Assembly (NCBI GenBank): GCA_000004695.1
Contig: CM000155.2
Location: 2,848,001 to 2,912,000, forward strand
Direction: 5' to 3'
DNA length: 64,000 nt
Source: Dictyostelium discoideum
Taxonomy: Eukaryota
A program made the position numbers and the translations under genes. Positions 1 through 3,000 of this stretch are shown here, one piece after another. How positions within the stretch are numbered: position 1 is the first letter of the stretch; every line of letters begins with the position of its first letter. The notes under the pieces were generated by a model. The model was not told the origin of the DNA. It worked only from the letters and a program-made list of their open reading frames with translations, and searched no databases.

Positions 1-3000
1 TTGTTATTTCAGAAGAGAAATTAAGACTTGCAAAGAAAAAGCTTTCTTCTATTGGTGATGAAGATATTAAAGATCTATTACCATCTGAAAGTGGTGCTGT
101 GGATAATAGTAATGACTTTTTAACAATGACAAATAGTAATAGTAACAATAATAGCAACAGCAATAATAATGACACAATCAATACAACAGCCACCATCACA
201 CCTACGACAACATCATCATCACCATTACTACAAACAACAACTACATCATCATCATTATCATCATCATCACCGCCACCACCACTACCACAAACAACCACTT
301 CCTCAATACCACCAACATTCAAAGGATTTAGTACAGGTAGGGGTGTGGCTGTTGTAATCTCTGAAGAGAAGCTAAAGCTTGCACAGAAAAAGCTTTCATC
401 CATTGCTGACGAGGATATTAAAGATTTATTACCATCTGAAGGTGGTGTTGTTGATAATAATGACTTTTTAGCAATGAATAGCAGTAGTAATAATAGTAAT
501 GGTAGTAACAATAACAATAACAATAACAATAACAATAACAATAACAATAACAATAACAATAACAATAACAATAACAATAACAATAACAATAACAATACCA
601 CCACCACCACAGCATCATCATCATCATCATCATCATCATCATCATCATCATCATCATCATCATCATCATCATCATCATCATCATCATCATCATCATCATC
701 ATCATCATCATCATCATCATCATCATCATCATCATCATCATCATCATCATCACCATCACTACAAACAACTACATCATCATCGCCACCACAACTACTACAA
801 ACAACCACTTCCTCAATACCAACAACATTTAAAGGGTTTAGTACAGGCAGAGGTGTAGCTGTTGTAATCTCTGAAGAGAAACTAAAACTTGCACAGAAAA
901 AGCTTTCATCCATTGCTGACGAGGATATTAAAGATTTATTACCATCTGAAGGTGGTGCTGTTGATAATAATGATTTTTTAACAATGAACAATAGTAATAG
1001 TAACAATAGCAACAGCAGCCATACCAATACTACTACAACTACAACCACAACCACTACAAATACTACAAATACTACAACCGCTTCAACTTCTAATGATAAT
1101 TCAACATCGAGATCTGATGATTCGTCAGCACCCTCGTCACCTCAACCTCAACAAAATATAAGGGCACCATCCCCACCATCATCATTTTCATCATCATCGT
1201 CAACATCATCTATTGCACCACCAACAACACCAAATAGATCACCAGTACCAACATCAACAAATTTAAATTCATCAACAGCAACAGTACCACAACTAACAAC
1301 ACCAACAAAGTCTAAATACCCTCTTCAATCACCAGTAAAGAAAACATTTGTATATAATCCAAACACAACACCAACTAAAAAATCATTCATTCCACCAACA
1401 AAATCATTGTCTCCACCTCAACAGCAACAAACGAGTACTGTACCACCACAAACTAATATTGCACCAACTACAACATCTACTTTTTCATACCCAACCACAC
1501 CAAAAACAGCACCAAAAATATTAAGTAAACCACAAATTTCAACACCAAAAAAAAGTTCATTCAAACCTCCAATAAAAAGTAATAACACACCAACAACACC
1601 AACAACAACAACGACATCAACGACAATATCACCAGCTAGTCCAAATGGAAATTCAAAAGGAATATCACCTCCAAAATCAAAATTAAATATCTCACCTTCA
1701 AAAAGTACAACACCAATTAATAATAATAATAATACTAATAATAATAATAACAATAATATACAAAAGAAACCAATTGATAATAGAAGAAAATTAAAAGATT
1801 TAGGTAGACCATTTTTAGTATCATGCGAAGGATTGGTAAAGAATGATGTTCTAGAAATTACAAGTAGAAATGCATCAGAATATAGATTTGAGAATAATGG
1901 TGAAGTTAAGGATATTGGTAAATCCAAAACCATTGGTGTTGCAGATCTTTATATTTATCTAACGAAAATCAATCAATCCAATGCTGCATTGGTATCACAA
2001 GAATGGGTTAGTAATCATTATGGTTGGATCGTTTGGAAACTTGCATCAATGGAAAGATCATTTCCATTGGAATTTGGTGGTAAATATCTAAAATTACAAC
2101 GTGTTGTAAATCAATTGAAACAAAGAATTGAAATTGAAATTAATCAAGCAAAAAGACCAATCTTAAAGAAAATTTATGAAAGAGATCAACCTTCTGAATT
2201 ACCAATGGTATTATGTATTTCTTCAATTTTAGATGATGGTTATGGTGGTGGTATAAATAATAATAATAATCCAAATAATCCAAATAATAATAATAATAAT
2301 AATAATTGTACTGTTGAAAATGATGATGGTATTATATCAATGGATGATATAGATATTACAATGAATGATGATTTAGAAACAGCTTCAACTTCCACAACCA
2401 TCTCATCAACTAATAACGCTAATAATAATAATAATAATAATAATAATAATAATAATAATAATAATAATAATAATAATAATAATAATAATAATAATAATAA
2501 TAATAATAATAATAATAAAACAAATTATATTCAACATCCAATTGCAACAATTGAATTAACTGATGGATGGTATCCAATTAAAGGAGCATTAGATCCATTT
2601 TTAACACAATGTTTAAAACAAGGTAAATTATTTGTTGGACAAAAACTATATATTCAAAATGCAGGAATAGTTGGACAAGAGAATGGTATATCACCATTGG
2701 AAGATGGGTTTGAACAAGTTCATTTGAAATTATTTACAAATAGTACACGTAGAGTTAGTTGGTATGAAAATTTGGGTGCTAGGAAATCAATGTTTCCAAT
2801 CTCCTTAAAATCAATTATACCTGGTGGTGGTACAGTTGCATGTCTAAAAGTAGAGGTAACTCATATCTATAAATTATCATTCAAGGAAACTATAATGGGC
2901 GAAGATGGTTCACTAAAAACTGTAATTACACGTTGTGAAAATGAAGAACAACAATATAAACAACAATATGAATCTAAAGCAGAGATTGCACGTGAGAAAC

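Follow-up and report, generated by a model that had tools for sequence, protein, structure and literature searches.

The 64,000-nucleotide stretch of Dictyostelium discoideum AX4 chromosome 6 analyzed here (hereafter the window) opens inside the gene for the BRCA2 orthologue FncD1, and its first kilobase raises the question of how this protein came to carry several closely similar peptide units in tandem. Are these units BRC repeats of the kind that bind RAD51, how many of them does the protein have, and were they produced by a recent, possibly still ongoing, process? Our findings point to what we regard as a likely answer: a single BRC module, typical of dictyostelid BRCA2, was duplicated twice and gave rise to the three modules of the D. 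discoideum protein.

In this region a unit of ~59 amino acids (aa), FKGFSTGRGVAVVISEEKLKLAQKKLSS...DNNDFL, occurs three times, twice in full and once cut off at its 5' end; its full protein form reads ...QTTTSSIP(P/T)T-FKGFSTGRGVAVVISEEKLKLAQKKLSSIADEDIKDLLPSEGG(A/V)VDNNDFL(T/A)M. At the DNA level the direct repeats begin at nucleotides (nt) 1, 352 and 862, with periods of 351 and 510 nt that are both multiples of three, and the BRC-type units span aa 1-42 (partial), 106-158 and 276-328 of the visible reading frame. An ungapped comparison of copies 2 and 3 over 190 nt gives 93.7% identity, and codon alignment of 192 nt (288-479 against 798-989) reveals 12 differences; the identity of copy 1, measured over ~122 nt, is 85.2% with copy 2 and 87.7% with copy 3. 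The likeness extends into the flanking linkers, where a longer direct repeat (208-507 against 718-1017) retains 84% identity. Repetition of this order is far beyond chance. The initial annotation of this sequence had reported at least three repeats within 1.1 kb, which is what we find, and had put their nucleotide identity at about 93%, a value that describes copies 2 and 3 well but overstates the likeness of copy 1.

Based on our interpretation of the sequence comparisons, the units belong to a divergent, FxTG type of BRC repeat to which Pfam's BRC model does not extend. Since a hidden Markov model (HMM) built from plant-type BRC repeats gave non-significant scores, their identity was established through the dictyostelid family as a whole. 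Five other dictyostelid BRCA2 proteins were available for this purpose (from Tieghemostelium lacteum, Synstelium polycarpum, Cavenderia fasciculata, Heterostelium album and one further EukProt entry), and each has a similar motif in its N-terminal region, e.g., MGFQTGKGTAIQLTEKQLRDAQAKI... or VGFSTGVGKNRKIVEIDQEKLRERQ... An HMM of these five motifs, with D. discoideum left out, recovered copies 2 and 3 at 33-35 bits (E ~1e-9 among 1894 chunks; unit 2 alone, 35.5 bits, E 9e-10) and the truncated copy 1 at 11 bits (E 0.039), with no other segment above 10 bits in the six-frame translation of the 64 kb. We then compared two alignments, one comprising the five orthologues together with D. discoideum copies 2 and 3, the other comprising ten BRC repeats from three proteins that Pfam annotates as BRC-containing (two from plants and one from an unidentified metagenome). 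The latter, when searched against PDB, retrieves human BRC4 (1N0W_B, E 3.8e-7) and the Leishmania BRC peptide 7QV8_D. The two alignments match in the canonical register with an hhalign probability of 94.4% (P 9.4e-8), and the D. discoideum copies on their own reach 70.7% (P 3.8e-5). Searched against 177,635 distinct PDB sequences, the dictyostelid alignment has human BRC4 (1N0W_B) as its top match (E 0.0023), pairing GFqTGkgkaveideeKL with GFHTASGKKVKIAKESL. It is on this profile evidence, obtained by way of the dictyostelid family and despite the failure of PF00634 to recognize the units, that we regard them as BRC-type, as the initial annotation had called them.

Residue by residue, G108-F109-x-T111, G114, V117, I119, E122 and L124 of D. 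discoideum match the G-F-H-T, G, V, I, E and L of human BRC4 in 1N0W, and a helix, predicted in D. discoideum, follows the hairpin region in both. In the established BRC4 numbering (1N0W; Pellegrini et al. 2002), F109 corresponds to F1524, T111 to T1526, G112 to A1527 and L131 to F1546. Comparison with the FxxA and LFDE-like motifs of the RAD51-BRC4 interface, which the initial annotation had envisaged, finds counterparts for the Phe, the Thr and, at Leu131, for Phe1546; the FxxA alanine is glycine (FSTG), and LFDE reads KLSS. Single-sequence AlphaFold2 prediction of one unit places a helix over EEKLKLAQKKLSSIADEDIKDL, with a predicted local distance difference test score (pLDDT) of ~80, where BRC4 has its helix; the same prediction contains no hairpin, as expected of a peptide that folds on its partner, and we treat it as weak evidence. 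By homology with the BRC4-RAD51 complex, the units would be expected to bind Rad51. In addition, every unit ends in an acidic-aromatic D-x-(x)-D-F-L sequence ~47 residues after the BRC phenylalanine (approximately nt 114-125, 462-473 and 972-983). This tail is kept in most of the other dictyostelid proteins (DEDDFL, EEDFI, DDTEF, DDTEY), is not found in canonical BRC repeats, and may provide an extra contact for Rad51 or for another partner.

All five of the other dictyostelid BRCA2 proteins have exactly one copy of the motif. The three copies of D. discoideum represent a lineage-specific expansion of the whole ~117-aa unit, i.e., the BRC motif together with its linker. By the Nei-Gojobori method, synonymous divergence (dS) between copies 2 and 3 is 0.17-0.24 (0.235) and non-synonymous divergence (dN) is 0.021, arising from nine synonymous and three non-synonymous changes, while copy 1 differs from copies 2 and 3 with a dS of 0.64-0.73 and a dN of 0.06-0.08. 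These values indicate two successive duplications that, as judged from synonymous sites, are not very recent. The dN/dS ratio of ~0.1 among the copies indicates that all three peptides are under purifying selection, which accounts for their likeness at the protein level, and because they have been kept in this way each copy is probably functional.

The number three is probably the full BRC count, a conclusion that relies on the annotated product length in a second, independent and nearly identical assembly, GCA_054883475.1. The relevant locus of that assembly (22.7 kb, reached via abcB1) aligns to window positions 3302-10955 with no mismatch and one gap, and its annotated BRCA2 gene ends at the same stop codon and encodes a product of 1616 aa. 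With 1556 aa encoded in the window, ~60 aa remain upstream, which accommodates a ~40-aa leader and the FKGFSTGRGVA half that copy 1 lacks but is too short for another ~117-aa unit; in the orthologues the motif begins at about residue 8 to 107. The gene is indeed cut by the window edge, as had been recognized at the outset, but the accompanying expectation that more repeats lie upstream is probably wrong.

Several observations weigh against the interpretation given above, and some of them would also suit a different view of the unit, namely that it is a dictyostelid-specific motif of the BRCA2 N-terminus, only superficially BRC-like, that serves another partner or role and does not bind Rad51. 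Pfam's BRC model (PF00634) has no match in the full open reading frame (ORF), in its N-terminal 366 aa or in the isolated units, even with E allowed up to 10, and no match in the five orthologues either, and hence misses the unit in all six dictyostelid proteins. A phmmer search of PDB with a single D. discoideum unit found no BRC peptide, and the HMM of the ten plant and metagenome BRC repeats, run against the six-frame translation of the window, gave the D. discoideum units 2.7-3.8 bits, less than unrelated parts of the window received. The FxxA tetrad keeps its Phe and Thr, but Gly takes the place of its Ala in D. discoideum, as it does in four orthologues out of five; conservation does not extend to the LFDE end, where D-E is replaced by S-S and the acidic residues are shifted to IADEDIKD, and the D-D-F-L tail is a conserved addition foreign to canonical repeats. 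The change from Ala to Gly also occurs, however, in plant repeats (FRTG, FQTG) of proteins that pass Pfam's BRC model. The family profile also aligns in the correct register with recognized BRC repeats, at the significance given above, and its best match across the entire PDB is human BRC4. At least one BRC repeat is present in every characterized BRCA2 homologue (PMC2408642), and the dictyostelid proteins offer no other candidate; moreover, the unit precedes the DNA-binding domain on its N-terminal side, which is the usual position of BRC repeats. We therefore consider it very unlikely that the unit is something other than a BRC repeat. Two further points bear on the number and age of the repeats. 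The timing of the expansion is bounded by the five other dictyostelids, with D. purpureum, D. citrinum and D. firmibasis outside the sample, and the annotation of GCA_054883475.1 could have missed an upstream exon or could differ in tract lengths.

The initial annotation had attributed the near-identity of the repeats to recent duplication or concerted evolution, and a process of this kind, whether very recent duplication or ongoing gene conversion and unequal crossing-over, is known from Trypanosoma brucei (PMC2408642); it would predict an unstable repeat number that varies between strains. The in-frame direct repeats of 351 and 510 nt would be suitable substrates for unequal exchange. Copies 2 and 3 also share a 70-nt block free of differences (nt 378-447 against 888-957), and only ~4-5% of random placements of the 12 differences match such a run (P ~0.045), which is the only hint of gene conversion that we find. 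Set against this is the extent of the synonymous divergence, both between copies 2 and 3, where nine of the 12 differences are synonymous, and even more so between copy 1 and the others. T. brucei has 14 identical repeats out of 15, with less than one base of difference per repeat (PMC2408642), whereas the D. discoideum copies have diverged by 6.3% (2 against 3) and 12-15% (1 against 2 or 3), with dS spanning 0.17-0.73, and thus do not show near-identity of the T. brucei type. The annotated product length in the second assembly, furthermore, fits the same three-unit architecture. Recent or concerted evolution is accordingly not the best reading of the data, and we judge it distinctly unlikely. 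One might also suspect that the repeats are an artifact of duplicated or mis-joined reads in the AX4 reference, which is imperfect, with four 100-N gaps in the window, and in which long pure triplet tracts would have been hard to assemble. Duplicated reads would not, however, yield copies that are 6-15% apart in a mostly synonymous, codon-aware pattern, with the frame open through all units. GCA_054883475.1 fills N gaps, and its 1616-aa product is compatible with 1556 aa plus a short N-terminus, which leaves an assembly artifact as an extremely improbable explanation.

The likely account, two rounds of duplication of a single dictyostelid BRC module, can be formulated as follows. The region would represent the N-terminal, recombinase-binding part of D. 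discoideum BRCA2/FncD1. The ancestral dictyostelid protein would have had one BRC-type module near its N-terminus, consisting of the GF-x-T-G motif, a short hairpin-forming stretch, an amphipathic helix (..I-S/D-E-E-K-L-x-x-A-x-K-L..) and the acidic D-D-F-L tail, followed by a disordered linker rich in Ser, Thr and Pro with FxPP motifs and then by the helical, OB and tower domain that would bind DSS1 and single-stranded DNA. In the D. discoideum lineage the module and linker (~117 aa, 351 nt) would have been tandemly duplicated twice, with copy 1 branching off before copies 2 and 3 separated from each other. By homology with BRC4-RAD51, each copy would bind one Rad51 monomer, the FSTG phenylalanine entering the oligomerization pocket with Gly in place of the FxxA alanine, and Leu131 of the helix that follows taking the place of BRC4 Phe1546. 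Up to three Rad51 protomers could in this way be chaperoned on the disordered N-terminal arm of a single BRCA2 molecule, a stoichiometry that we infer from the copy number. The (AACAAT)15 and (TCA)46 tracts would be replication-slippage expansions of short Asn and Ser runs in the duplicated linker, and as flexible spacers would lengthen the interval between the second and third BRC units from ~58 to ~111 aa.

The pure tracts are both confined to the interval between copies 2 and 3 (Table 1), where Tandem Repeats Finder reports the Ser tract at 613-758 (period 3, 98%). Since N-rich, T-rich, S-rich and P-rich segments follow one another in this order in the linker between copies 1 and 2 as well, where they are short and impure, the pure tracts are slippage expansions inside a duplicated linker rather than separate modules. 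Earlier claims about these spacers were correct in kind and less so in detail: a perfect (TCA)n tract is present, although it was given as ~45 units at 607-745, one unit short and ~8 nt off, and pure homopolymers, including the poly-Asn tract described as (AAC/AAT)n, do separate repeats, namely copies 2 and 3 and no others. The 64-kb window has seven pure triplet runs that reach 20 units or more, and nearly 10,000 homopolymer tracts, mostly of N, Q, T and S, are known from D. discoideum (PMC13093961, PMC3460934). Given this abundance in the window and across the proteome, the spacers are ordinary for this genome. Both tracts are typical of coding triplet repeats and homopolymers in D. discoideum (PMC3460934, PMC13093961, PMC9234386) in being in-frame and located in a disordered linker, and have nothing specific about them, (TCA)46 merely standing at the long end of the range. 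Length variation between isolates is general for such tracts (PMC3460934), and by analogy those described here likely vary as well; the homopolymers probably serve only as neutral spacers.

Two candidate P-motifs of the FxPP type lie further along, where an S/T/P-rich linker connects the BRC units to the helical domain, and share the form K-K-x-(x)-F-x-P-P-x-K. At least one F-x-[PS]-P motif is present at the equivalent place in each of the five orthologues. In vertebrate BRCA2, the PhePP/FxPP P-motifs (TR2) bind and stabilize RAD51 and DMC1 filaments (PMC11229353, PMC11436757). The D. discoideum motifs resemble these and, by analogy, may bind recombinase filaments.

The identity of the gene itself is secure. 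The frame is open from nt 3 to 4673 on the forward strand (frame 3, 1556 codons, stop codon at 4671-4673) with no need for an intron, in DNA of 23% G+C. Its chromosomal origin is established by two complete ORFs in the window that exactly match AX4 proteins of the 3.6-Mb chromosome 6, AbcB1 (XP_629144) and DDB_G0293428. Pfam identifies the BRCA-2_helical domain (PF09169) at aa 642-715 (70.7 bits, cut-off 25; E 1.5e-19) and BRCA-2_OB1 (PF09103) in two stretches (119 bits, cut-off 25.6; E 1.3e-34). For aa 839-1556, an AlphaFold2 model based on an 11-sequence alignment has a mean pLDDT of 55.6, rising to 75-89 over model residues 110-310. It contains strands at residues 107-140, helices at 141-194 and 251-282, strands at 291-301 and a small helical cap. 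Foldseek comparison of this model with PDB returned 1MIU_A (E 4.5e-15 over 406 columns), 1MJE_A and 1IYJ_B; these three significant matches are all BRCA2-DSS1 complexes, and no others fell below an E of 1. The model thus argues for the presence of OB2 with an inserted tower, although Pfam's OB2 model has no match in the D. discoideum ORF and matches two orthologues weakly. Pfam's OB3 model likewise has no match in the ORF (T. lacteum gives only E 0.039), and the C-terminal third of the structural model, corresponding to the OB3 region, has a pLDDT below 50.

Homologue searches lead to the same family. A protein search with the helical and OB1 domains, stripped of low complexity, returned plant, fungal and metagenome or protist BRCA2 proteins. 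A HMMER search of 1.84 billion representatives gave 218 proteins below 1e-30, of which the top four are dictyostelid BRCA2 proteins with 36-44% identity. The search with the full ORF returned only an H. album fusion model, and a query with the 57-aa unit had no words in common with any candidate. No BRCA2 of D. discoideum or any group-4 Dictyostelium was found in the 5.8-billion or 1.84-billion protein sets, where proteins from neighboring genes are, unlike BRCA2, represented by several isolates and species; low-complexity clustering, indexing or missing gene models may be behind this gap. A Dictyostelium BRCA2 orthologue, FncD1, has been reported previously (PMC2730050), with a supplement that does not state the fncD1 locus. 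Taken together, the location on AX4 chromosome 6, the Pfam helical and OB1 domains, the Foldseek matches to 1MIU, 1MJE and 1IYJ and the HMMER results identify the ORF as the D. discoideum BRCA2 orthologue, a gene that is already known, and uphold the initial assignment.

In comparison with other systems, a close parallel is the BRC array of T. brucei (PMC2408642, PMC3553974), which is, like that of D. discoideum, a lineage-specific tandem expansion absent from related species. In both organisms the unit is longer than the ~35-aa BRC core, and the copies resemble one another far more than do the repeats of animals and plants, which are dispersed and degenerate. The T. brucei array, however, has 12-15 copies of a 44-aa unit with virtually identical DNA and a number that varies among strains, whereas the array of D. 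discoideum consists of three ~117-170-aa units with 6-15% DNA divergence and a dS of 0.2-0.7, and its periods are unequal because of triplet-repeat growth. Plant BRCA2 proteins (e.g., Arabis P0025, with four repeats) are similar to D. discoideum in having several repeats, some with Gly in place of the FxxA alanine, but their repeats are mutually degenerate and irregularly spaced rather than near-identical tandem units. The other Dictyostelia (T. lacteum KYQ89115, C. fasciculata XP_004357726, H. album and S. polycarpum) have the same order of elements, with a GF-x-T-G motif and acidic aromatic tail, an S/T/P linker containing F-x-[PS]-P, and the helical, OB1, OB2 and tower domains; they differ in having one motif copy each, where D. 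discoideum has three along with long pure homopolymers.

Our searches of the literature, within the searchable library, found no description of this BRCA2 architecture under BRC repeats and Dictyostelium, and nothing under BRC repeats and concerted evolution. The change from one to three copies within the Dictyostelia, the FxTG variant missed by Pfam and the conserved D-D-F-L tail thus appear to be undescribed, though we acknowledge that they are incremental. The expansion described here is genuine but modest and belongs to a familiar class, as variation in BRC number and lineage-specific tandem growth are both known. Its interest lies in the fact that the number of BRC repeats (1 to 15 among eukaryotes) determines how much RAD51 a BRCA2 molecule can hold, and that such an expansion has been tied to function in T. 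brucei only, where a changed BRC number alters RAD51 redistribution after damage (PMC3553974). By analogy, an effect of valency in D. discoideum is plausible. As a tractable haploid model for DNA repair, with an increase from one to three copies that are all under purifying selection, this organism offers a simple system for the study of BRC number and spacing. For automated annotation it is also relevant that the entire FxTG-type dictyostelid family escapes Pfam's BRC model. A more far-reaching proposal would be that D. discoideum or its close group-4 relatives triplicated the whole module (BRC motif and D-D-F-L tail) under selection, that a higher Rad51-loading valency and the two FxPP motifs contribute to the exceptional efficiency of homologous recombination in this organism and to its extreme DNA-damage tolerance, and that the hypermutable (TCA)n and (AACAAT)n tracts make the spacing, and occasionally the copy number, polymorphic. 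We put this forward as a speculative scenario that is, in its entirety, unlikely.

Table 1. Positions of features along the D. discoideum BRCA2 reading frame, in nt of the window; aa numbers count from the first full codon.
Feature	Position	Strand	Remarks
3' 1556 codons of BRCA2 (FncD1)	1..4673	+	Single exon; first full codon at nt 3; 5' end outside window
BRC unit 1, cut by window edge	3..128 (aa 1-42)	+	Only VISEEKLRLAKKKLSSIGDEDIKDLLPSESGAVDNSNDFLTM visible; FxTG half upstream
Linker 1	129..287	+	Impure N/S-rich, then T-rich, S-rich, P-rich; ends before QTTTSSIPPT lead-in of unit 2
BRC unit 2, complete	288..479	+	QTTTSSIPPT-FKGFSTGRGVAVVISEEKLKLAQKKLSS-IADEDIKDLLPSEGGVVDNNDFLAMN; core nt 318-401 (aa 106-133)
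Pure hexanucleotide (AACAAT)15	507..596	+	30 Asn
Five Thr codons (ACC)	597..611	+	Between Asn and Ser tracts
Pure (TCA)46	615..752	+	46 Ser; longest pure triplet run of window
BRC unit 3, complete, last copy	798..989	+	Core nt 828-911 (aa 276-303)
FIPP in TKKSFIPPTKS, candidate FxPP P-motif	1386..1397	+	aa 462-465; regex scan, orthologue conservation
FKPP in PKKSSFKPPIKS, second candidate P-motif	1560..1571	+	aa 520-523; ~150 aa before helical domain
BRCA2 helical domain	1926..2147	+	PF09169; includes NHYGWIVWKLA
Best-scoring OB1 stretch	2487..2783	+	PF09103; aa 829-927
Approximate OB2 with inserted tower-like pair of long helices (predicted)	2835..3600	+	Model residues 107-360, pLDDT ~75-89

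A further homopolymer is located within the DNA-binding part of the gene, where Tandem Repeats Finder detects a pure (TAA)33 run at 2420-2518 that corresponds to 33 in-frame AAT Asn codons and overlaps the start of the best OB1 stretch. Here a long homopolymer would be tolerated within a folded domain, presumably as a surface loop.

The neighboring gene, convergent with BRCA2 (4833-8482, reverse strand), has no Pfam domain and carries a poly-Asn tract encoded by (TAT)41 at 5969-6091. A single-exon ORF of 994 aa considered for it is not a recorded product, and was replaced by a three-exon model of 1142 aa (introns at 8215-8321 and 7848-7961) that equals the length of the product in GCA_054883475.1. 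The four 100-N gaps of the AX4 reference lie at 10956-11055, 23438-23537, 26168-26267 and 56130-56229. The first of them interrupts a Q-rich WD40 gene (WDR33/Pfs2-like) at ~8788-11300, and the first three coincide with breaks in the alignment of GCA_054883475.1, which has extra sequence there, while the fourth is outside the compared region. A scan of the 64-kb window for transfer RNA genes found none, and the rad51 gene of D. discoideum lies elsewhere in the genome. Among the remaining genes are a ComC-like protein with DUF7034/7035 domains (40922-42715) and an S-adenosylmethionine-dependent carboxyl methyltransferase (49244-50395). Three ABC-transporter genes are also present within the 64 kb, namely abcB1 (13187-15916, reverse strand), an ABCA-type gene (32969-37774, forward strand) that is apparently split into two ORFs, and a second ABCB-type gene (43271-46552, reverse strand).

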